Source: a virus. From it: a DNA stretch of 64,000 nt. The notes below the pieces were generated by a model, which saw only the letters and a list, made by a program, of their open reading frames with translations, was not told the DNA's origin and searched no databases. The position numbers and the translations under genes were made by a program. The stretch lies in the IMG/VR virus record IMGVR_UViG_3300031746_000002, positions 1 to 64,000 of that record; one strand, given 5' to 3'. Position 1 is the stretch's first letter. The number at the start of each line of letters is the position of its first letter. This document shows, one piece after another, positions 51,058-64,000 of the stretch.

Positions 51058-51265
51058 TATTGGCGAAGAAGATGAAGAAGTTTGTTTAGAACATAAAACT
51101 TCTAATCTAAGCGGATCAAAAATGCCTTGGCACAGAGATGGAAAATTATTTTGTGAAGGTTGTGGAAAAGGAGTTAGTTCAGTTTCAGTAGTTATTGAGG
51201 GGGCATTTTGCGATACTTGTATTATAGGTGTAATGAATAAAAGGATTATAAAGAATAAAAAATGA
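51026..51265 (+). CDS. Small Zn-finger protein
   Basis: CEGC...CDTC; SD GAGGA before ATG 51026. Confidence 0.5.
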   Translation: MASLLKKTTCDIGEEDEEVCLEHKTSNLSGSKMPWHRDGKLFCEGCGKGVSSVSVVIEGAFCDTCIIGVMNKRIIKNKK

Positions 51266-51627
51266 AAATACGACATTTACTTTTAGATTTTGAAGGAATA
51301 CAAAAAAATCTTAAATTACTTGATGACCCTAATAAGCTTGCTATAGTAATGATAAGAGCAGCTGAAGTGGCTTCAATGACAGCATTAAGCTGGAGCTTTC
51401 AAAAATATTTACCACAAGGTTTAACTGTTACTGTGTATTTAGCTGAAAGCCATTTATTAATATCAACAACACCAGAAAATAAAGAATGTAATATTGATGT
51501 AAGCGTTTGCAAAGAATCAAGTGATTTAGAAGCAGTAGAACAATATTTCAAAAAATTATTTAAACCAAAAAATATTATTAAGAATTGTATTGAACGTGGT
51601 TCTAAAAATATAGAAATAAAAGGATGA
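51262..51627 (+). CDS. speD: Pyruvoyl-dependent S-adenosylmethionine decarboxylase proenzyme family
   Basis: HLLLDF, PQGLT, LAESH (self-cleavage E/S), TPE and IDVSVC motifs. Confidence 0.8.
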   Translation: MKIRHLLLDFEGIQKNLKLLDDPNKLAIVMIRAAEVASMTALSWSFQKYLPQGLTVTVYLAESHLLISTTPENKECNIDVSVCKESSDLEAVEQYFKKLFKPKNIIKNCIERGSKNIEIKG

Positions 51628-54807: not shown

Positions 54808-54844
54808 GGGTGGAGTAGCTTAAACCCTACTCCACCCATTTTTT
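54808..54844 (+). terminator. Rho-independent terminator
   Basis: GGGTGGAGTAG/CTACTCCACCC 11-bp stem plus ATTTTTT; preceded by a near-palindrome at 54782-54805. Confidence 0.85.
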
Positions 54845-54859
54845 CAAAGGAAAACTAAC

Positions 54860-55351
54860 ATGAAAGATAACAGACAAAACGTTCACGAATTCTATATTGG
54901 TTTAGCAAAACAAATAGCTTCAAGGGGAACATGCTTACGCAGGCAGATAGGAGCTGTTTTAATTAAAGATGGTATTATATTAGCAACAGGATATAATGGA
55001 CCGCCATCAGGGTTAGCACACTGCGATAAATGTTTTCGCATAACTAATAATATCCAAAGCTCAACACGTTTAGAATTTTGTAGAGCAGTACATGCTGAAG
55101 AAAATGTATTAATTCAATGTGCTATAAAGCAGACAAATCCCACTGGTGGAATTTTATATTGCACACATTCTCCTTGTGTTACTTGTGCAAAAAGTATTAT
55201 TCAAGCTAAAATCAGTGCTATTATATATGATGAAATTTATCCAGATGAATTGACTCAGCAAATGATAGGAGAGTCTTCTGTATTATTTTATCAAGTTAAA
55301 ACTCCTAACTTAGATACTTTATTAAAACTTAAAGGACAAACATTAATATGA
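54860..55351 (+). CDS. dCMP deaminase (ComEB-like)
   Basis: CLRRQIGA, TGYNG, HAEEN and SPCVTC motifs. Confidence 0.93.
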   Translation: MKDNRQNVHEFYIGLAKQIASRGTCLRRQIGAVLIKDGIILATGYNGPPSGLAHCDKCFRITNNIQSSTRLEFCRAVHAEENVLIQCAIKQTNPTGGILYCTHSPCVTCAKSIIQAKISAIIYDEIYPDELTQQMIGESSVLFYQVKTPNLDTLLKLKGQTLI

Positions 55352-55884
55352 TAATCATTGTTGAAGGAATAGATGGTACTGGCAAAACTTATTTTTGTAA
55401 ATATATAGCAAAAAAATATGGCTTTAAATATATTCATGCACCAAAACCAAAGAAACCTTTCGATGAATTTGCTAAAACAGTTACTGCTAAGTACAAAAAA
55501 TTAATCAAAGATAATTTAAAAAAATATGTTATTTTTGATAGATCATTTTATAGTGAATATGCTTATAATTATAATAGGACACATAAATACATAGAGCAAT
55601 TTGAAAAATTATTAAATGTTAATTACACTGTTATATTATTTACTCTATCTCATTTAGGTATCAGGCGAACATTTAATAAATATATTGCTAATCATCAAGC
55701 TTTTGATAATCAAAATAAGTTTGCAAGAAAAGTAGCAGTACAACAGCGATATATTTATATTTTGGGAAAATCAAGACTTGCAAGTAAATACATAATAAAT
55801 ATTCCAGACACGCTTGATAAACTTGGTACAGGATATAAAAAAGCACAGAATACAGCTTTAAGAATTATTGAGCATATAATATGA
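55348..55884 (+). CDS. Thymidylate-kinase-like dNMP kinase
   Basis: IVEGIDGTGKT and FDRSFYSEYAY motifs. Confidence 0.85.
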   Translation: MIIIVEGIDGTGKTYFCKYIAKKYGFKYIHAPKPKKPFDEFAKTVTAKYKKLIKDNLKKYVIFDRSFYSEYAYNYNRTHKYIEQFEKLLNVNYTVILFTLSHLGIRRTFNKYIANHQAFDNQNKFARKVAVQQRYIYILGKSRLASKYIINIPDTLDKLGTGYKKAQNTALRIIEHII

Positions 55885-56891
55885 AATTAGATAATTACTA
55901 CAGTGAAATAACCAGAGTACGAGAAAAGATGTCACCTATCTCTATTTGCATTTATCCTACAAACCGATGTTCATGTAAATGTATAATGTGCGATGTACAT
56001 AAAATACAAGACAAAGCAGACTTACCTTTTGATAAATTATTAGATGTAATTATTATGGCGCATCTAATGAAAGTAGAAAGCATCGTTTTCATTGGTGGTG
56101 GCGAACCAACACTTTACGATCATCTTCCACATATAATAGAACATATAAATGAATTTACACAGATGTCAATGGGAATTCTTACAAATGGTAATACAAATTT
56201 TAATTTTGGTTGTGCTGCAAAAAACTATCGTATGAAATTTATAAGATTTTCAATAGATGCAGTTAGTAAAGAACTTTATAAAAAAATACGAGGAGCAGTA
56301 CTTGATAAGGTACTTAATAATTTCAGTACTGTTTTAAATGTTGCTCCAGAAAAAACTAGAATAAATGCTTTGATTATGGATGAGAATATATTTGATGTAA
56401 AGAACTTAATTGATTTTGCAGCAGATAATCATACAACTATTAATTTTACATTAGCAGTGAATTGTAATAGTTTTAAGAATAAAATAAAAATCAATGAACT
56501 TACAAGGTTACAATATTATAAAAGTTCTTGCCATAATTTAAACATACTATTTGAGAAGCATGAATTAATAAATAAACACGAATGTGTATTACCTTTAATA
56601 TACGCTGTAATTGATGCAAAGGGAGATGTGTTTCCTTGTACAATAGCAGCTCAAAGTTTGGGTATTAATATTGATAATAGAGATGTTATATTAGGTAATA
56701 TATGTCAAGATACATTTAGTAGTATCTGGCTTCGTTCTGGGACACGAAGACTGAACATGTCTAGTAATCCTGATAAATTCAATATTTGTCGCTGGTGTAA
56801 CAGGGGTGGTATATCTGCATGTAAACTAAATATGCAGTATAGAAATGAATATGAAACATTGAAAAGTCTTCACAAGGCAACATTCTTATGA
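55881..56891 (+). CDS. Radical SAM protein with SPASM/twitch domain
   Basis: CSCKCIMC (Cx3Cx2C), GGGEP, TNG, FSID, C...GDVFPC...CRWC. Confidence 0.9.
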   Translation: MKLDNYYSEITRVREKMSPISICIYPTNRCSCKCIMCDVHKIQDKADLPFDKLLDVIIMAHLMKVESIVFIGGGEPTLYDHLPHIIEHINEFTQMSMGILTNGNTNFNFGCAAKNYRMKFIRFSIDAVSKELYKKIRGAVLDKVLNNFSTVLNVAPEKTRINALIMDENIFDVKNLIDFAADNHTTINFTLAVNCNSFKNKIKINELTRLQYYKSSCHNLNILFEKHELINKHECVLPLIYAVIDAKGDVFPCTIAAQSLGINIDNRDVILGNICQDTFSSIWLRSGTRRLNMSSNPDKFNICRWCNRGGISACKLNMQYRNEYETLKSLHKATFL

Positions 56892-57502
56892 AACAACAAA
56901 TGATAGAAAACGAAAGATTAAAAACAGTTAGAAATCAACTACAAAGTTGCAAGCAATGTGAACTTTCAAAGCTTGAAATAAATAAACAAGATGAGGATTA
57001 TCCAGACAGAGGTAAAGTCTTTTCAACGGGTTATTCTGATGCAAAAATAATGTTTATAGGAGAAAGTCCATTTTTTAAAAGAGTAGTGGGAAATGATGGA
57101 ATAATACGACCATTTAATTTTGGTAATGAATATGAAGATAATGTTGGGTCTGGTAAAATACTTTTTAATATTTTATGGAAACTCAATGTAAAACGAGAAG
57201 ACATTTACATTACAAATTTAATCAAGTGTTCTTACAATGAAAAGTTACGAAAAAATATTCAAAAATATTTTGCTGAATGTTTCTTCTTAACAAAGCTTGA
57301 AATAGCTTTAGTAAAACCAAAAATAATCTTTTTATTGGGAAATGAAGTACATCAATTTTTTGAAACACATAAGCTGATGTCAATCATTCCTGAACAAATA
57401 ATAGCAATATCACATCCTGCATTTATTTATAGAAGTCCCGGCTTTAAAACTAAATATGAAGGTATTATAAAGCATCATTTAACAGAGGCGGGTTTGATAT
57501 GA
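56888..57502 (+). CDS. Uracil-DNA glycosylase family 4-like (Fe-S)
   Basis: CKQCEL, IMFIGESP, YITNLIKC, LLGN and HPAF motifs. Confidence 0.85.
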   Translation: MKQQMIENERLKTVRNQLQSCKQCELSKLEINKQDEDYPDRGKVFSTGYSDAKIMFIGESPFFKRVVGNDGIIRPFNFGNEYEDNVGSGKILFNILWKLNVKREDIYITNLIKCSYNEKLRKNIQKYFAECFFLTKLEIALVKPKIIFLLGNEVHQFFETHKLMSIIPEQIIAISHPAFIYRSPGFKTKYEGIIKHHLTEAGLI

Positions 57503-58671
57503 TTAAAGTATTATATGCACCATTTTATTCTATGAGAAGTTATAAAACAACTATGTGGTTACTTCAAAGAGATGGACATGCAACAAGATGCAGAAACATA
57601 GTTCATCTTTTATGTCAAAAATATAATGATGTAAATTTTGATATTATTATTCCGACTAATAATGATATTGATAATAGCTTCGAAAAATTCTTTGGGAAAT
57701 TTGATACTTCAGAATATGTTGATCGTGTTAGATTACTTGTAAATCCTTTTTATGCGCATAACACTGTAAGTGAACGAATGAATTTTCCATATAAATTTTT
57801 TAAAGAAGTATTAGCTAATAGCAATTATGATGTAGTAATTTATGAAAACATTGAAAATGCAAGATATATGAAAAATTTAATGTTACCTCATGCAAGACTA
57901 ATTTCTTCAATAACTCATTCACCAGCAACAGAAGACACAATTTTTTTAAAGCATAACAATTTTTTACTTCGGATCATTGATGGTCTATATGCATCTGATG
58001 CAGTGTTTTATAATACATCATATATTTTTAATAATATGGATTGTATACTATCAAAACATTTTCCTAATGATATTGCTATATTAATGGATAAATTAAAGGC
58101 ATCATATGCTTATACTAGTTCATATGAAATGGGATCAATTGATGATGTAGCAGCTGCAAAAGAAAAAGGTTCTGTTTTATTCATGAGTAGATTTTCAGAT
58201 GCAGACAGAACTAAAGTAAATGATTTTATAAATCTCGTTAAAGATTATAAATCTGATAAGTATCGTTTTTATATAACAAACCCTTCTGAAGCAATACTGA
58301 ATATGGATATGCAAAATTTATTAGACAGAGATAAATTAACTTTACTTCCACAACATAATAGAAGAGATTGGAAAGACATACTTCGACGAATGGAAATGGT
58401 AGTAATTTTATATGATGTTGAAAAATGTTATAGTACAGGATATTTTGAAGCAGCATTAAATAAATGCAAAATCATAACACAATCACATAAAAGTTGGATG
58501 TATAAATTAAATGAACATATTTATCCTTTATCTGATGACATAGAGCAAGCATTAGATAGTGCATCAACATGTCCACCAGGTAAAAACTATTTAGGATGTA
58601 AAGTAAGTTCTAATGATTTCACTGTAGAACATAGCTTAAATAAACTTGCATCAATAATTTTATGTAAATAA
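57499..58671 (+). CDS. GT-B fold glycosyltransferase (putative nucleic-acid modifying)
   Basis: ASDAVFYNT, VLFMSR...RTK and YSTGYFEAA...CKII (GT4-like donor-binding region). Confidence 0.65.
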   Translation: MIKVLYAPFYSMRSYKTTMWLLQRDGHATRCRNIVHLLCQKYNDVNFDIIIPTNNDIDNSFEKFFGKFDTSEYVDRVRLLVNPFYAHNTVSERMNFPYKFFKEVLANSNYDVVIYENIENARYMKNLMLPHARLISSITHSPATEDTIFLKHNNFLLRIIDGLYASDAVFYNTSYIFNNMDCILSKHFPNDIAILMDKLKASYAYTSSYEMGSIDDVAAAKEKGSVLFMSRFSDADRTKVNDFINLVKDYKSDKYRFYITNPSEAILNMDMQNLLDRDKLTLLPQHNRRDWKDILRRMEMVVILYDVEKCYSTGYFEAALNKCKIITQSHKSWMYKLNEHIYPLSDDIEQALDSASTCPPGKNYLGCKVSSNDFTVEHSLNKLASIILCK

Positions 58672-58672
58672 G

Positions 58673-58685
58673 GCTTAATAATTAA
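58673..58685 (+). promoter_or_regulatory. Promoter motif GCTTAATAATTAA
   Basis: Ends 7 nt before the first tRNA-like RNA. Confidence 0.6.
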
Positions 58686-58692
58686 ACTACTC

Positions 58693-58768
58693 ATAGAGGT
58701 GGAGCAATTGGTTAGCTCAATTTATCCAGCGCAGGTAAATTATATAGGTTCGAGTCCTATCCTTTATG
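58693..58768 (+). tRNA. tRNA-like RNA 1 with non-canonical anticodon arm
   Basis: Acceptor ATAGAGG/CCTTTAT; D arm GAGC/GCTC with TGG; T arm ATAGG-TTCGAGT-CCTAT; 7-bp anticodon stem, loop CAGCGCA lacking U33; no encoded CCA. Confidence 0.7.
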
Positions 58769-58770
58769 GT

Positions 58771-58892
58771 GGGCAAATGGCGCAGTGGCTTTGTACGCAG
58801 AAGTTGAATCACTCAAATTAGAGTAACAGCTTCAGTATGAATTTATGCTAGTTCACTTTCATACTTCGGGGGTTCAAATCCCTCTTTGCCCA
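58771..58892 (+). tRNA. tRNA-like RNA 2 (122 nt) with expanded anticodon and variable arms
   Basis: Acceptor GGGCAAA/TTTGCCC-A; D stem GCG/CGC; T arm GGGGG-TTCAAAT-CCCTC; 34-nt arm GAAGTTG...CAGCTTC; 32-nt arm AGTATGAA...TTCATACT. Confidence 0.7.
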
Positions 58893-58921
58893 TTTTATAA
58901 AATTTAGTGGAGGAGAATACA

Positions 58922-59971
58922 ATGATAAAATTGATGGTAGGAAACAACTGGGATTTAAATTTGTTAGACAATCTTGCTGAGCTTAATGATAAATATCAAG
59001 CAGAAAATATTCAAATCGTTGAAGTGTATGGTTCAGTAATAGATAATCCAATAGGAACAGCTAGACCAACTTTTAGATTACAAGATAAATCACGTAAAGA
59101 AGTAGAAGAATTTACTAAAGTTGCTAATGCATGTTATATTGAATTGAATTATACTTTAAATATTCCATGCTTCGGAAATCTTGATGATTTATATATTAAG
59201 TACAATTCAATTTCTAGCTTTTTAAAATGGTTAGAAAACATTGGAATAAAAAGAGTAACAGTAACACATCCATTATTAATGGATATAATAACTAAAGAAA
59301 CAAAACTTGAAATTGAGCTATCAACAATTTTTCATATTACTTCAGTTCGGCAACTTGCTTTATTAATGAAACAATATCGTATTAGAAAAGTTTGTATGAA
59401 TTTAATGAAGAATAGGGATTTTGATTTCTTATCAGCATTCCAATTTAAAGATGTAGATATTGAATTAATGGTAAATGAAATGTGTAATTATGAATGTGTA
59501 TACCGTGCATCATGTTATAATTTACATGCTCATACAGTAAGAAGTAATAGAGATAGGTTCAGTGATTATCCAATGGGATATTGTACAGGTTTAAGAGATG
59601 GGGATTTAGTTGAATGGTTAAAGGCAAGATTTATACTACCACAATGGTTGGAATATTATTCTGCAAATTTTAATATTAACCATTTTAAAGTTACTGGCAG
59701 AACAGGTACAACAAAATATATTACATGGGTTGCAGAACAGTACATGAAAAAACAATACGATGATAATTTAATTGCTCTATGGTTTCAATTAGAAAACATA
59801 GGTCAAGCAGAGAATAAACATATTGTTGCAAAAAATCAAATCCCAGCAGGTGAAATTAAATTAGATTTCCTTGAACATTTCAAACATGCAAAATGTGATA
59901 TTGAATGCAACAATACATGTGCTTTCTGTAGTATATACTTGCAAAAGATACAGGAAAATAATGGCAAATAA
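58922..59971 (+). CDS. Peptidase U32 family Fe-S protein (putative O2-independent hydroxylase)
   Basis: NYTLN, IELSTI, IELMVNEMC...C...C...C cluster and FKVTGR (cf. LKIEGR); SD GGAGG before ATG 58922. Confidence 0.8.
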   Translation: MIKLMVGNNWDLNLLDNLAELNDKYQAENIQIVEVYGSVIDNPIGTARPTFRLQDKSRKEVEEFTKVANACYIELNYTLNIPCFGNLDDLYIKYNSISSFLKWLENIGIKRVTVTHPLLMDIITKETKLEIELSTIFHITSVRQLALLMKQYRIRKVCMNLMKNRDFDFLSAFQFKDVDIELMVNEMCNYECVYRASCYNLHAHTVRSNRDRFSDYPMGYCTGLRDGDLVEWLKARFILPQWLEYYSANFNINHFKVTGRTGTTKYITWVAEQYMKKQYDDNLIALWFQLENIGQAENKHIVAKNQIPAGEIKLDFLEHFKHAKCDIECNNTCAFCSIYLQKIQENNGK

Positions 59972-62900
59972 ACAGCAACCGTTCGTTCATCTTCATACAC
60001 ATTCCACATATTCTACGCAGGACGCTATTGGGTATCCTTCTGAAATTTTAAAACATGCAGAAGATATAGGGTTTAGGTCTATAGCAATAACAGACCACGG
60101 TAATATGAATATGGTTGCTAATCTTTATTTGGCTTCTAAAGATTTAAAGATCAAACCAATTTATGGTTGTGAATTTTATATGGTACCAAACTTAGAAAAA
60201 TGGAAAGCTAGAAAACTAGAAATTGAAGAACAAGTAAAGTTAATGAAAAAAAATTCTGAGGAAAAAGTAACACGTAAAGATTTCAAAGAGCTTCAAAGCG
60301 AATTACGTAAACGATTTCATATTATACTACTTGCAAAAAATATGGAAGGAATTAAAAATTTATATGAATTATGTTATCAATCAAATTTTGGTGATAACTT
60401 TTATTATAGACCACGAATCGATGTAAACTTAATAGAAAAACATTATAAAGGATTAATATGTACATCAACATGTTTAGCAGGTTATCTTAACAACCGTTTA
60501 GAAAAAGTTAAAGTGCTTGAAAGATTTAAAGACATGTTTGGTGAAGATTTATATTTTGAAATAATGATGAATGAAATGCCAGAACAAAAAGTATTAGACA
60601 CTGAAATACTTGAAGCATCAGACAGCCATGAAATACCTATAATTTATACGGGTGATGTCCATTATATATTAAAGGAAGATGCGATAGCTAGAGACGCCTT
60701 GCGTATGTTAAGATTGAAACAAGTAGTGTCTTCTAAGCAGAAAGATGATAGTGTAAATTGTGAGCAGATGTATTTACGAACTTATGATGAAGTAATGGAA
60801 GCATACAGTGATTTTAAATATAATAAAATATTCAGCAAAGATATGCTTAAATTATTTATGAAGAACACATTAGAAATCGATGAAAAAATAGAACGACTAG
60901 ATTTTTCATATAAAACAGAACATACTATCAGATGGAAAAATGATTATGATAGATTAAAGGAATTATGTTATAATGCTTTAGACAAACGTATACCAAAAGA
61001 TAAACAGAAAGAATATGGAGCACAACTTAAAAAAGAGCTTGAAGTAATTCATGAAAAAAATATCAGCAGTTATTTTCTATTAATGAAAGTAATTGTTAAT
61101 TATGCCAAGGAAGAAATGATAGTTGGTTGTGGCAGAGGTTCAGCAGCAGGTTGTTTAGTAAGTTATCTTTTAAATATCACTGAGATTGACCCATTAAAAT
61201 TTGGATTATATTTTGAACGATTTATAAACATTGAAAGAAAAGAACTTCCAGATATCGATTTGGATTTTCAATATCCAGAAAAAGTAAAAAGTTATTTAAG
61301 CAACAGATTTGGTTATGACAATGTTGCAAGCATTGCTTCATATGGAACATTTCAAATTAAAGGATTATTAAAAGATCTCATAAGGGTTTATGAAGTACCA
61401 ATGGATATGATGCAGGTGAATAGACTCACAAAGGATATTGATAAAGAATTATCAGTACTGCTTCAAGACACAGAACAAAAAGGTATTGTAGTAACAACAT
61501 ATGATGTAGCTTATAAAACTTCTAAATCACTTAAAGAATTTTTAGATAAGCATGAGAAAATAGCAAAAGTGATGCAGATATTACATGGACAAATAAGACA
61601 TATCACAAGGCATGCTGCTGGTGTAATAGTTTGTAAGGGTTTAAAATCAAAACTTCCATTACAACGAATTAAAGATATTTTATGTACTTCATTTATGGAA
61701 GGCGGATCAAAGCACGAACTTTCTAAAATGGGATTTGTTAAACTAGATATTTTAGGATTGAATGCATTATCAATAGCAGACGACACATTAAAGTTAATAG
61801 GTAAAACATATGAATACGTACATCCTGATCATTTAAATATTGAAGATAAGAAAGTATATAATGATGTATACAACAAAAAAAATTATATAGGTATATTTCA
61901 GTTTGATGCAAAGAGCATGAGAGACGTTGCTAGCAGCGGTAAAATAACAACGTTTGAAGATTTAATAGCTCTGAATGCATTGGATAGACCTGGACCAATC
62001 AGAAGTGGAATGCATTTAGATTTCTTTAAAAATAAACAAGACTCTTCAAAGATAGAATATTTGCATGAAAGATTACGACCAATACTTGAAGGAACATACG
62101 GTATTTTATGTTACCAAGAACAAATGATGCAGATAGCACAACAATTAGCTGACTTTGATCTAGCTGAAACTAATGTACTACGAAAAGCAATTGTAAAAAC
62201 AAGTAAAGAAGATATAGACAAGAATGAAAAACTTAGAGCTGAACTTAAAATAAGATTTTTAAAAGGTTGTGCAGATAACAAAATCAATAAAGATATTGCA
62301 GAAAAGATATGGGAATTGATGGCTAAGTTTGCAGGTTATGCTTTTAATAAGGCTCACAGTGCGTCATATGCTATGGTAGGTTATCAATTAGCTTTTCTTA
62401 AAACATATCATCCAAAAGAATTTTATGCTGCTGTATTAAACAATGACCAGTTTGATAACTATAGTGCTATAATACAAGAGATAAAAAATAATGGTATAGA
62501 GATTGAGTCTGTAGATATAAGATACAGTGAAATTAATTTCTCTCTTAAGGATGGAAAAATATATTGGGCATTTTCAAAAATCAAAGGAGTGGGAGATAAA
62601 GCAGCTGAAGCCATTATAGATGTAAGAAAATCTTACGAATTTAAAGGTATTAAAACATTTTTGAAAAGTCCTATGAACTGGCGAATAGTTAATAAAAGAG
62701 TGGTAGAGTCTTTGATCAGTTGTGGTGCATTTGATTTTCAAACAAATTTTGGAGGTAATGTAAAACAACTATTAGAATTTTATAACATGTGGAACAAGGG
62801 ACAAAAAAATAAATTTAAGAAAAGTGAAAAGAATGATCCAGACTTAGTGAAAAGAAAAATGAATGAAACTATGCAAGAAGTTGAAGAGTTAAAAACTGAA

Positions 62901-63305
62901 GATTATAATATTACTGAGAAATCATTTATAGAATATAATTTATTAGGCACTAATTTAAAATATTCACCTTTTAGTTTGGGTGAAAGACCAGAAATAATAA
63001 AGCAGCTTGTTGATATTGGTATAAATGGTAGTTTTAAAGATGAGAAACAATTTTTCATTGTATCACCAATGTCGATACGAGAACAACGGGATAAAAAGAA
63101 ACGATTGATGGCTTTTGTAACATTTATGGATTTTATGGGTGAAGTTAAAAATGGTATTGTGTTTTCATCAAATTATAAATCTGGAGCATTAGAAATAGGT
63201 AATGTTTATTCTGTCTGTGGAGAGTTAAAAGAAAATAATTTCTTTGTTTCAAAAATAAAAACAGTAGAACATTTAGGAAAAAAAATGTCAGGAGAGGAGG
63301 ATTAG
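59961..63305 (+). CDS. dnaE: DNA polymerase III alpha subunit
   Basis: PHP domain HLHTHSTYS and AITDHG; GRGSAAG; PDIDLD; HAAGV; KLDILGL; YQEQ; YAFNKAHS. Likely start is ATG 59961. Confidence 0.95.
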   Translation: MANKQQPFVHLHTHSTYSTQDAIGYPSEILKHAEDIGFRSIAITDHGNMNMVANLYLASKDLKIKPIYGCEFYMVPNLEKWKARKLEIEEQVKLMKKNSEEKVTRKDFKELQSELRKRFHIILLAKNMEGIKNLYELCYQSNFGDNFYYRPRIDVNLIEKHYKGLICTSTCLAGYLNNRLEKVKVLERFKDMFGEDLYFEIMMNEMPEQKVLDTEILEASDSHEIPIIYTGDVHYILKEDAIARDALRMLRLKQVVSSKQKDDSVNCEQMYLRTYDEVMEAYSDFKYNKIFSKDMLKLFMKNTLEIDEKIERLDFSYKTEHTIRWKNDYDRLKELCYNALDKRIPKDKQKEYGAQLKKELEVIHEKNISSYFLLMKVIVNYAKEEMIVGCGRGSAAGCLVSYLLNITEIDPLKFGLYFERFINIERKELPDIDLDFQYPEKVKSYLSNRFGYDNVASIASYGTFQIKGLLKDLIRVYEVPMDMMQVNRLTKDIDKELSVLLQDTEQKGIVVTTYDVAYKTSKSLKEFLDKHEKIAKVMQILHGQIRHITRHAAGVIVCKGLKSKLPLQRIKDILCTSFMEGGSKHELSKMGFVKLDILGLNALSIADDTLKLIGKTYEYVHPDHLNIEDKKVYNDVYNKKNYIGIFQFDAKSMRDVASSGKITTFEDLIALNALDRPGPIRSGMHLDFFKNKQDSSKIEYLHERLRPILEGTYGILCYQEQMMQIAQQLADFDLAETNVLRKAIVKTSKEDIDKNEKLRAELKIRFLKGCADNKINKDIAEKIWELMAKFAGYAFNKAHSASYAMVGYQLAFLKTYHPKEFYAAVLNNDQFDNYSAIIQEIKNNGIEIESVDIRYSEINFSLKDGKIYWAFSKIKGVGDKAAEAIIDVRKSYEFKGIKTFLKSPMNWRIVNKRVVESLISCGAFDFQTNFGGNVKQLLEFYNMWNKGQKNKFKKSEKNDPDLVKRKMNETMQEVEELKTEDYNITEKSFIEYNLLGTNLKYSPFSLGERPEIIKQLVDIGINGSFKDEKQFFIVSPMSIREQRDKKKRLMAFVTFMDFMGEVKNGIVFSSNYKSGALEIGNVYSVCGELKENNFFVSKIKTVEHLGKKMSGEED

Positions 63306-63306
63306 T

Positions 63307-63582
63307 ATGTTTAAGTATGAACTTGGGCAAAAAGCAAAGGACAAGATTTCAGGATTTGCAGGTATCATAGTGGCAAGGATAGAGTTTCTTAATGGGTGTA
63401 AAAGATATTCATTAGCTCCAGAAAAACTCAAAGATGAAAAACCAATTGATAGTGAATATTTTGATGAAGAACAAATAATTGTAAAAGCATTGAATAAAGC
63501 AAAAAAAGAAAAGGAAAAAGAAGGACCAGGTGGTCCATACAAAAAACCTAATGATGGATTAAAAGTAAAAGTAAAGTTTTAA
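63307..63582 (+). CDS. Hypothetical phage protein (SH3-like)
   Basis: LGQKAKDKISGFAGI...NGC...FDE; SD GGAGG. Confidence 0.6.
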   Translation: MFKYELGQKAKDKISGFAGIIVARIEFLNGCKRYSLAPEKLKDEKPIDSEYFDEEQIIVKALNKAKKEKEKEGPGGPYKKPNDGLKVKVKF

Positions 63583-63591
63583 GGAGGAACA

Positions 63592-63990
63592 ATGGCAGAT
63601 CAGGAAAAAGCTACGGATAATACTATATTGGATAGGCTGCATATAATGTTAAATTATCAGAAACAAATTTATGCTGCTGATAATGTACTTAAGACTAAAA
63701 CTCATAATGATAGAGCACATTGGTTCTGTGGTGGTATCATTATGGAAGCTTCTGAAGTAATGGATAAAACAAAGTTTCGTCATTGGAAAGATGAAGAAGA
63801 AGCACCAATAGCTGAAGTCAAAAAAGAAATAATTGATTTGATACATTATGTTTTAGATTTATGTATTGAATTTGATATGACAGCTGAAGAAATATATGAA
63901 GTCTATGTAGCTAAAGCACAGAAAAATTTAAAGAGGTTTGAAATAGGTAAAAAAGCAGCAGATAAAATTGATGAGCAGACTAATAAATAA
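63592..63990 (+). CDS. All-alpha dimeric dUTPase / MazG-like NTP pyrophosphatase
   Basis: EASEV, HWK, EIID..HY and Y..K..KN..R motifs. Confidence 0.8.
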   Translation: MADQEKATDNTILDRLHIMLNYQKQIYAADNVLKTKTHNDRAHWFCGGIIMEASEVMDKTKFRHWKDEEEAPIAEVKKEIIDLIHYVLDLCIEFDMTAEEIYEVYVAKAQKNLKRFEIGKKAADKIDEQTNK

Positions 63991-64000
63991 TTATAAAAAA

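Follow-up and report, generated by a model that had tools for sequence, protein, structure and literature searches.

The T4 hydroxymethylcytosine pathway comprises a dCTPase (gp56), a hydroxymethylase (gp42), a kinase (gp1) and alpha- and beta-glucosyltransferases. The DNA of phages RB69 and DLP3 carries a different modified base, arabosylated 5-hydroxycytosine (arabinosyl-5hoC; PMC13326640, NAR 2026). Its precursor, 5-hydroxy-dCMP (5hodCMP), is made by a homologue of thymidylate synthase (ThyA) with flavin; the oxygen comes from 18O2, and a D169N signature predicts such enzymes (PMC13326640). Here we describe a 9.1-kb gene block in the IMG/VR virus record IMGVR_UViG_3300031746_000002 that joins homologues of the glycosyltransferase and kinase of those phages to a U32-family protein, and in which no ThyA homologue was found. 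The window analysed is the first 64 kb of this 138.9-kb viral record, whose CheckV completeness is 68%. The block spans positions 54860-63990, with all named genes on the + strand (open reading frame (ORF) calling; Pfam, PHROGs and NCBIfam scans).

We read the block, at a probability of about 0.5, as a thymidylate-synthase-less variant of phage glycosyl-5-hydroxypyrimidine DNA hypermodification, with the U32 protein as a putative O2-independent, prephenate-using C5 hydroxylase. A preliminary description of the sequence had proposed a wholly new pathway. Glycosylated 5-hydroxycytosine DNA is already published, together with a ThyA-like O2/flavin hydroxylase (PMC13326640), and the locus is therefore a variant with a different candidate hydroxylase. 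What it adds is the ThyA-less context and a survey of complete genomes.

The arabinosyl-5hoC clusters of the Straboviridae (RB69 gp45-gp55; the HY126 Afh genes) and of Acinetobacter phage DLP3 provide homologues of the Tmk-like kinase, of the first-position GT-B glycosyltransferase (GT) and of U32, the last being RB69p050 within the RB69 cluster (PMC13326640, Table 1). They are also alike in lying beside a DNA polymerase and in having a gp56-type pyrophosphatase and a dCMP deaminase. Unlike them, the present locus has no D169N ThyA-like 5hodCMP synthase that we could find in the 68%-complete record, and no arabinose-5-phosphate isomerase, NTP-transferase/kinase or HAD phosphatase near U32. Its polymerase is DnaE rather than PolB, and it has an extra radical SAM/SPASM gene. 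The cited passages of the arabinosyl-5hoC work assign hydroxylation to the ThyA homologue and O2 and describe no tested role for U32. Rhizobium phage RL38J1 (Pootjesviridae), with hexosyl-5-hydroxycytosine, offers a second parallel in its host-type hexose donors and in the Tmk-like kinase of its cluster; it differs in using a D169N ThyA homologue, and its Table 1 listing contains no U32 (PMC13326640).

The proposed pathway shares the T4 scheme of removing the canonical dNTP, modifying the monophosphate, phosphorylating, polymerising and glycosylating on DNA. From gene identities, folds, linkage and distribution we infer its substrate, oxygen donor, order of steps, base and sugar as follows. 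The pyrophosphatase and deaminase would shape the dCMP and dUMP pools. U32 would hydroxylate C5 of a deoxypyrimidine mononucleotide, in our favoured version dCMP to give 5-hydroxy-dCMP, taking the oxygen from prephenate without O2, as is thought for RlhA and TrhP. Phosphorylation to the triphosphate would fall to the Tmk-like kinase together with host NDP kinase, DnaE would incorporate the product into DNA, and the GT-B enzyme would glycosylate the 5-hydroxyl on DNA using a host NDP-sugar. The radical SAM/SPASM enzyme would further modify the product. Unlike in T4, the modifier would be a U32 iron-sulphur (Fe-S) protein rather than a ThyA homologue, and the handle a hydroxyl rather than a hydroxymethyl group. 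UbiU-UbiV are O2-independent ubiquinone hydroxylases, U32 Fe-S proteins with a small-molecule substrate that replace O2/flavin enzymes under anoxia. We propose the same logic for the phage U32 relative to the flavin ThyA-like enzyme, although the phage substrate would be a different one and we saw no pairing of U and V subunits.

The features of the block are these:

54808-54837, + strand: strong terminator-like hairpin with an 11-bp stem, 7 G-C pairs and a T tail, bounding the block upstream
54860-55351, + strand: zinc-dependent dCMP deaminase of the ComEB/T4 cd type (PF00383, 69 bits; phrog_174, E 1e-40)
55348-55884, + strand: Tmk-like P-loop nucleotide kinase (PF02223, 28 bits; phrog_761, E 1e-14)
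55881-56891, + strand: radical SAM and SPASM protein (PF04055, 54 bits; PF13186, 35 bits)
56888-57502, + strand: uracil-DNA glycosylase (UDG)-superfamily protein, nearest to family 4 (PF03167, 63 bits)
57499-58671, + strand: GT-B glycosyltransferase, 390 aa, without a Pfam match of its own (alignment, predicted structure, Foldseek)
58692-58769, + strand: tRNA-Leu (CAG) (ARAGORN; Rfam tRNA, 41.4 bits)
58771-58892, + strand: tRNA-like gene with a ~50-nt insert in the anticodon arm (Rfam tRNA, 31.6 bits; gathering score 29)
ORF from GTG 58907, likely start ATG 58922, to 59971, + strand: U32-family protein, predicted to bind Fe-S (PF01136; phrog_5757)
ORF 59871-63305, likely start ATG 59961, + strand: DnaE, DNA polymerase III alpha (PHP, DNA_pol3_alpha, finger and HHH_6 domains)
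63307-63582, + strand: 91-aa protein (phrog_16275, E 5e-18, a family without assigned function)
63592-63990, + strand: all-alpha NTP pyrophosphatase of the dUTPase_2/MazG type (PF08761, 48 bits; phrog_173)

The five genes from deaminase to GT are tightly packed, with a 4-nt overlap at each of four successive junctions (ORF coordinates). The coupled series of deaminase, kinase, radical SAM/SPASM, UDG and GT genes in the preliminary description is thus all present, and AlphaFold2 and Foldseek agree with the GT-B fold. So are the overlap of U32 with dnaE and the dUTPase/MazG-like gene that follows. U32 most likely starts at ATG 58922, preceded by GGAGGAG, rather than at GTG 58907, and DnaE most likely at ATG 59961, which gives an 11-nt overlap with the U32 stop. 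The reported lack of a thymidylate-synthase homologue in the window also holds, and it extends to the whole 138.9-kb record, in which neither ThyA (PF00303) nor ThyX (PF02511) found a match. Between the upstream hairpin and position 64000 there is no further + strand terminator-like site, and promoter-like sites occur at chance level (62 found, 62.2 expected). The tRNA-like gene starts 2 nt after tRNA-Leu(CAG) and was not called by ARAGORN. By megablast, the 9.1-kb block had no match among phage records.

Linkage of U32 genes across phages

U32 genes of this type recur beside GT and kinase genes. An alignment-based scan of IMG/VR viral contigs yielded 45 U32 loci, each with up to 10 kb on either side; these and other loci are numbered here with the prefix L. 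Within 10 kb of U32, the GT family is present in 26 of the 45 loci (hidden Markov model, HMM) and the kinase family in 30 (iterative search), three of them with kinase and GT fused. The GT-family HMM links 29 loci. Certain gene orders recur as well: kinase-GT-U32-DnaE in small, complete phage genomes of ~45-49 kb, GT-isomerase-nucleotidyltransferase/kinase-x-U32 in large phages, and ThyA homologue-U32-kinase-GT-UDG-DnaE-pyrophosphatase in another group. Depending on the phage, the replication genes beside U32 are of PolA, PolB or DnaE type.

Searches from other starting points gave the following picture. A scan anchored on the GT returned 17 loci, with U32 nearby in 16 and a ThyA homologue instead in one. 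Twelve of the 17 lie in records already known; among the five new ones, four have U32 without a ThyA homologue and one the reverse. This sample is biased, because its search patterns were derived from U32-adjacent GTs. With U32 itself, tblastn reached 222 phage records at <60% identity (37-38% in the top matches), nearly all from T4-like Straboviridae. In HX01 and Pm5461, whose U32 genes are 37-38% identical, the gene lies between the DNA polymerase and a ThyA homologue, among sugar-activation genes. Single-protein pattern scans found no U32 relatives in viral or metagenome contigs; alignment-based scans did find relatives.

Close relatives retain the gene set and reshuffle it. The metagenome contig L076 has backbone genes 70-83% identical to those of the window, and its deaminase (78%), DnaE (73%) and pyrophosphatase (81%) are similarly close. 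Its order is dCMP deaminase, U32, radical SAM/SPASM, class I SAM methyltransferase, GT, Tmk-like kinase, UDG, DnaE and pyrophosphatase, with the module (L076:1996-11266) rearranged between deaminase and DnaE; the contig has no ThyA homologue. Within that module U32 is 65% identical; the radical SAM/SPASM protein (26%), UDG (33%) and GT, which belongs to the same family, are distantly similar. Loci L003 and L077, with a U32 49% identical, encode a DnaE-UDG fusion, radical SAM, GT, pyrophosphatase, a kinase-deaminase fusion and U32. Across this clade (window, L076 and L003/L077) the set is kept, radical SAM included, but its order is not, and the modification cassette changes, by evolution or exchange, far more rapidly than the genes on either side. 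The fusions seen in relatives are DnaE with UDG (1055 aa), kinase with dCMP deaminase (314 aa) and GT with kinase (550-606 aa), at L003:3491-9971, L012:5252-7072 and L018:5342-6994.

This pattern bears on whether the block modifies bases at all. It might be an ordinary nucleotide-supply and replication operon with passenger genes, its GT acting on a target other than DNA, since each of the four other genes (deaminase, Tmk-like kinase, dUTPase-like gene, UDG) has an ordinary function. Such an operon would not lead one to expect a kinase-GT-U32 triad conserved beside polymerases in very different phages and homologous to the clusters of phages with glycosyl-5hoC DNA (PMC13326640). Nor would it account for a module that diversifies faster than the backbone between close relatives, as expected of an anti-restriction trait. 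We regard it as the least probable of the explanations considered.

Linkage also speaks to the nature of the U32 substrate. A phage RNA hydroxylase, forming ho5U in tRNA or ho5C in rRNA to tune translation, could sit among DNA genes and tRNAs incidentally. Every U32 pyrimidine hydroxylase characterised so far acts on RNA (PMC5727448; see also PMC6599085), and in the window U32 directly follows two tRNA-type genes. The adjacent tRNA-Leu, however, has C34 rather than U34, and in the 37 of 45 loci scanned the nearest tRNA is at least ~2.0 kb from U32, with only 7 having any tRNA or tmRNA within 10 kb. What does persist, across phages of PolA, PolB and DnaE type, is the linkage of U32 to GT, kinase and polymerase genes. 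We down-weight tRNA hydroxylation because the tRNA adjacency is not conserved, and consider an RNA target very unlikely.

Thymidylate synthase homologues in U32-encoding phages

Many U32 genomes have no detectable ThyA homologue. PF00303 matched in 12 of 45 whole U32 records and in 4 of the 13 that are at least 90% complete. This profile scores a T4-type hydroxylase at only 53 bits; because of that weakness, we built another from ThyA homologues present at the loci themselves; of its eight sequences, five have N at the D169 position. The new profile matched both positive controls and nothing else: neither the present 138.9-kb record (G000) nor any of the 24 ThyA-negative records searched, which are the 33 minus the nine shortest fragments. 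The nine ThyA-less genomes that are at least 90% complete each have exactly one GT of the family. A Tet_JBP search of ThyA-less genomes gave no match, but its control was likewise unmatched.

A compact genome illustrates the arrangement. This 48.9-kb ThyA-less genome with terminal repeats encodes, in order, a MazG-like pyrophosphatase, a Tmk-like kinase, a GT, U32 and DnaE, and farther on RecA, a dCMP deaminase, an OGG-like glycosylase and a separate trimeric dUTPase. By analogy, its gene set is functionally that of T4, with U32 apparently standing for gp42.

These genomes bear on a further explanation, in which a hydroxylated pyrimidine of the DNA is still glycosylated, but another enzyme, either a ThyA homologue in the missing third of the record or an unrecognised one, installs the hydroxyl and U32 serves as an accessory redox enzyme for a sugar or heterocycle or as an anoxic back-up. 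The 68% completeness of the record leaves room for it. RB69-type phages have U32 alongside a ThyA-like hydroxylase that is sufficient by itself, and their U32 has been tentatively labelled a 'reductase' (PMC13326640, Table 1), and a ThyA homologue lies within 10 kb of U32 in 10 of the 45 loci (HMM). Against this stand the 9 of 13 complete U32 genomes that are ThyA-negative by two profiles with positive controls, every one with a GT. ThyA homologues, where present, are mostly within a few genes of U32, and none lies close to U32 in the window or in L076, its close relative. Minimal kinase-GT-U32 operons, moreover, lack sugar-pathway genes that U32 could serve. We consider a separate hydroxylase rather unlikely.

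A ThyA homologue of another kind occurs in a 230-kb phage (L007:5509-7393), where it keeps Asp at the D169 position and adjoins the GT, with U32 four genes off. It is without the 5hodCMP-synthase signature, and its product may be methyl, hydroxymethyl or other.

The U32 protein and the other enzymes of the block

To judge from its sequence, the phage protein is a distant and distinct branch of the U32 family. It matches PF01136 at 25.4 bits against a cut-off of 22.4, over profile positions 3-64 of 233 only, and phrog_5757 at E 6e-66. Most of 76 homologues have a precomputed PF01136 match, and the closest ESM Atlas clusters are U32. Aligned with E. coli TrhP by hhalign (probability 44.8%, E 2.2e-4, 243 columns), the phage ELMVNEFC..C falls on the U32 motif and FKVTGRT on LKIEGRT, with C193 and C197 on the motif cysteines. 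A search of PDB sequences with the U32 profile returned only 5d88, at E 0.12, and the predicted fold is assigned from Pfam, PHROG and the published match of RB69p050 to 5d88.

Several cysteines are conserved in the phage branch. C163, C193, C197, C203 and C226 are retained in 101-109 of 109 distinct phage-type U32 sequences, and the phage protein plausibly binds Fe-S. A C-terminal C-x3-C-x3-C-x2-C cluster at positions 330-341 (numbered from GTG 58907) is present in ~81 of the 109, and may be a second metal site that is optional in the family.

RlhA and TrhP provide the nearest chemistry. RlhA (YdcP; ho5C2501 in 23S rRNA) and TrhP (YegQ; ho5U34 in tRNA) share with the phage protein the U32 family and cysteines in and after the U32 motif, and carry out prephenate- and Fe-S-dependent C5 hydroxylation of pyrimidines (PMC5727448). 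In RlhA, C169 and C176, both in the U32 motif, and two further cysteines are essential, and function needs prephenate and Fe-S biogenesis (PMC5727448). The phage protein differs in its very distant sequence, its shorter length of ~350 aa, the spacing of its cysteines and, in most members, the C-terminal four-cysteine cluster. Its context suggests deoxynucleotides or DNA rather than RNA.

Some phage relatives have genes of the prephenate pathway beside U32. Of 45 U32 records, 7 encode chorismate mutase; 3-deoxy-D-arabino-heptulosonate 7-phosphate (DAHP) synthase is encoded in 7 of 46, and the union is 9 records. In 7 of these 9, of which 3 are interrelated, one or both lie directly beside U32 (coordinates). 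Pfam-confirmed DAHP synthase-chorismate mutase fusions directly downstream of U32, at L013:11065-12084 and L029:11064-12182, would give those phages their own prephenate supply. An annotated chorismate mutase also adjoins U32 in the Pm5461 record. In the 138.9-kb record, models for chorismate mutase, DAHP synthase, trimeric dUTPase, NrdD, GT1, GT2 and NTP_transferase found no match.

The 390-aa ORF is, on its modelled structure, a GT-B enzyme of the RB69 gp46:47-position family, with DNA as the predicted acceptor. Alignment and shared motifs make it homologous to U32-adjacent GT genes of other phages, including the Pm5461 gene syntenic with RB69 gp46:47, a putative first arabinosyltransferase whose top match is MshA (PMC13326640, Table 1). 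A profile of 15 family proteins recovered 452 representative clusters in a 1.8-billion-protein library; one of the 15 matches Glycos_transf_1 (E 1.6e-5). The AlphaFold2 model, built on a 76-sequence alignment after a single-sequence model was discarded (predicted local distance difference test, pLDDT, 38.8), has pLDDT 91.3 and a predicted template-modelling score (pTM) of 0.91. Foldseek ranked MshA first (3c48, E 6e-10; 3c4q, E 2e-9) and placed the HY126 phage glycosyltransferase 9iqz at rank 17 (E 1.7e-8). Blastp found no gene for NDP-arabinose synthesis near U32, and Pfam models for NTP_transferase, GT1 and GT2 were unmatched in the record, which implies that the sugar donor comes from the host.

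The kinase and pyrophosphatase connect the block to the same phages. An iterative search with the kinase recovers those of the HX01 and Pm5461 clusters (E 1e-18 and 3e-34), and the pyrophosphatase matches the gp56-position enzyme of HX01 (E 2.6e-7). The preliminary description had given this pyrophosphatase the role of a dUTPase. The gene is there and its closest solved relatives are dUTPases; its resemblance to the T4-like gp56-position gene means that it may remove dCTP instead of dUTP. We favour cytosine as the modified base because of this resemblance to HX01, and because the GT, kinase and U32 families elsewhere accompany D169N dCMP hydroxylases.

A thymidine-side version of the pathway would run through uracil: the deaminase would yield dUMP, U32 would make 5-hydroxy-dUMP, and glycosylated 5-hydroxyuracil would take the place of thymine. 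This branch stays in consideration because the nearest solved relatives of the pyrophosphatase are dUTPases, because TrhP, the closest E. coli U32 by hhalign, hydroxylates uridine, and because dCMP deaminase and kinase, translationally coupled in this block, form a single fused gene in L003/L077. The failure to find a phage ThyA or ThyX in the 68%-complete record fits it too. On the other side, the UDG of the same operon could attack 5-hydroxyuracil. T4-like 5hoC phages also have a dCMP deaminase, and the D169N-type ThyA homologues with which the GT, kinase and U32 families co-occur are dCMP hydroxylases, pointing to cytosine (PMC13326640). We judge the uracil branch unlikely.

The UDG had been called a family 4 enzyme; it belongs to the superfamily, and its best NCBIfam matches are to family 4 models, but these fall below their cut-offs (TIGR00758, 56 bits against 125; NF040953, 57 against 250). 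It had also been cast as excluding uracil. In L003/L077 the UDG forms a fusion with DnaE, which makes a role as replisome or polymerase partner likelier than one in the modification chemistry. The radical SAM protein has only generic NCBIfam, PDB and homologue matches, with no subfamily reaching its cut-off, and a radical SAM/SPASM gene occurs in the same module in L003-L005, L076, L077 and L079. That it tailors the sugar is pure speculation.

The block lies within a replication region. On its 5' side are genes for an SF2 helicase, a DnaC-like loader, DnaB, S-adenosylmethionine decarboxylase, primase and a PD-(D/E)XK nuclease; on its 3' side are RecA, SbcCD, RuvC and a DNA methylase. Of these, the S-adenosylmethionine decarboxylase gene (51262-51627, + strand; PF02675, 78.7 bits) has DnaB on one side and primase on the other. 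We saw no aminopropyl transferase, and in the other loci no such decarboxylase was found near U32; a link to the modification module is possible. Past the window, a SbcC/Rad50-like ATPase is apparently split (L048:2739-5920; record 66739-69920): its N-terminal half, which includes the zinc hook, and a C-terminal SMC_N piece encoded on its own flank an SbcD-like phosphoesterase and two short ORFs of 99 and 86 aa.

Weight of the evidence and implications

Several points weigh against U32 as the hydroxylase. A ThyA homologue is by itself enough to form 5hodC in RB69 and DLP3, and DLP3 as described there is without U32, so in air U32 is dispensable in these phages (PMC13326640). The same paper tentatively labels RB69p050 a 'sugar or heterocycle reductase' on a 5d88 fold match; its Discussion cites two tRNA hydroxylation pathways and draws no connection to RB69p050, and it gives the addition of the first sugar by the GT family as a prediction (PMC13326640). 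The substrates of the U32 pyrimidine hydroxylases known so far are RNA polymers rather than mononucleotides. Membership of the phage protein in U32 comes through a partial Pfam match. No NCBIfam family, with the TrhP, RlhA and UbiU/V models among those searched, reached E <= 0.01, and hhalign gave no support for E. coli UbiU or UbiV (probabilities 6.6% and 1.4%). The motif cysteines are spaced C-x3-C in the phage proteins and C-x6-C in RlhA. Because the record is 68% complete, a ThyA homologue could sit in its missing third. The locus counts overstate independence because near-duplicates are included (L003/4/5, L015/17/37, L012/45 and L025/27), and the chorismate mutase and GT-family counts are raw figures without a phage background rate.

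Comparative genomics nonetheless supports well the proposed route from a U32-installed hydroxyl through kinase and DnaE incorporation to a GT-added sugar; kinase, GT and U32 are homologous to genes of the RB69-type cluster. To a broader proposal we give slightly less than even odds: that the U32 branch, with prephenate as oxygen donor, is the sole hydroxyl source in many ThyA-less phages, this one included, a third, anaerobic route beside the ThyA-type and TET/JBP-type ones, and that in this clade the radical SAM enzyme, with the methyltransferase of the relative, tailors the product into an undescribed DNA modification. Full-text searches of the accessible literature found no paper that ties phage U32 proteins to a DNA role or to DNA hydroxylation.

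Glycosylated 5-hydroxycytosine DNA was described only in 2025-26, and its published hydroxylase needs molecular oxygen. Many phages that carry the GT live where oxygen is scarce, and many are without the published hydroxylase altogether. If U32 is the hydroxylase, it would explain how the DNA of such phages is protected under anoxia, and U32 hydroxylase chemistry would reach beyond RNA and quinones to DNA precursors. A kinase-GT-U32 set beside a polymerase would then be a simple genomic marker predicting hypermodified phage DNA, which has consequences for sequencing, restriction and CRISPR targeting and for selecting phages for therapy.

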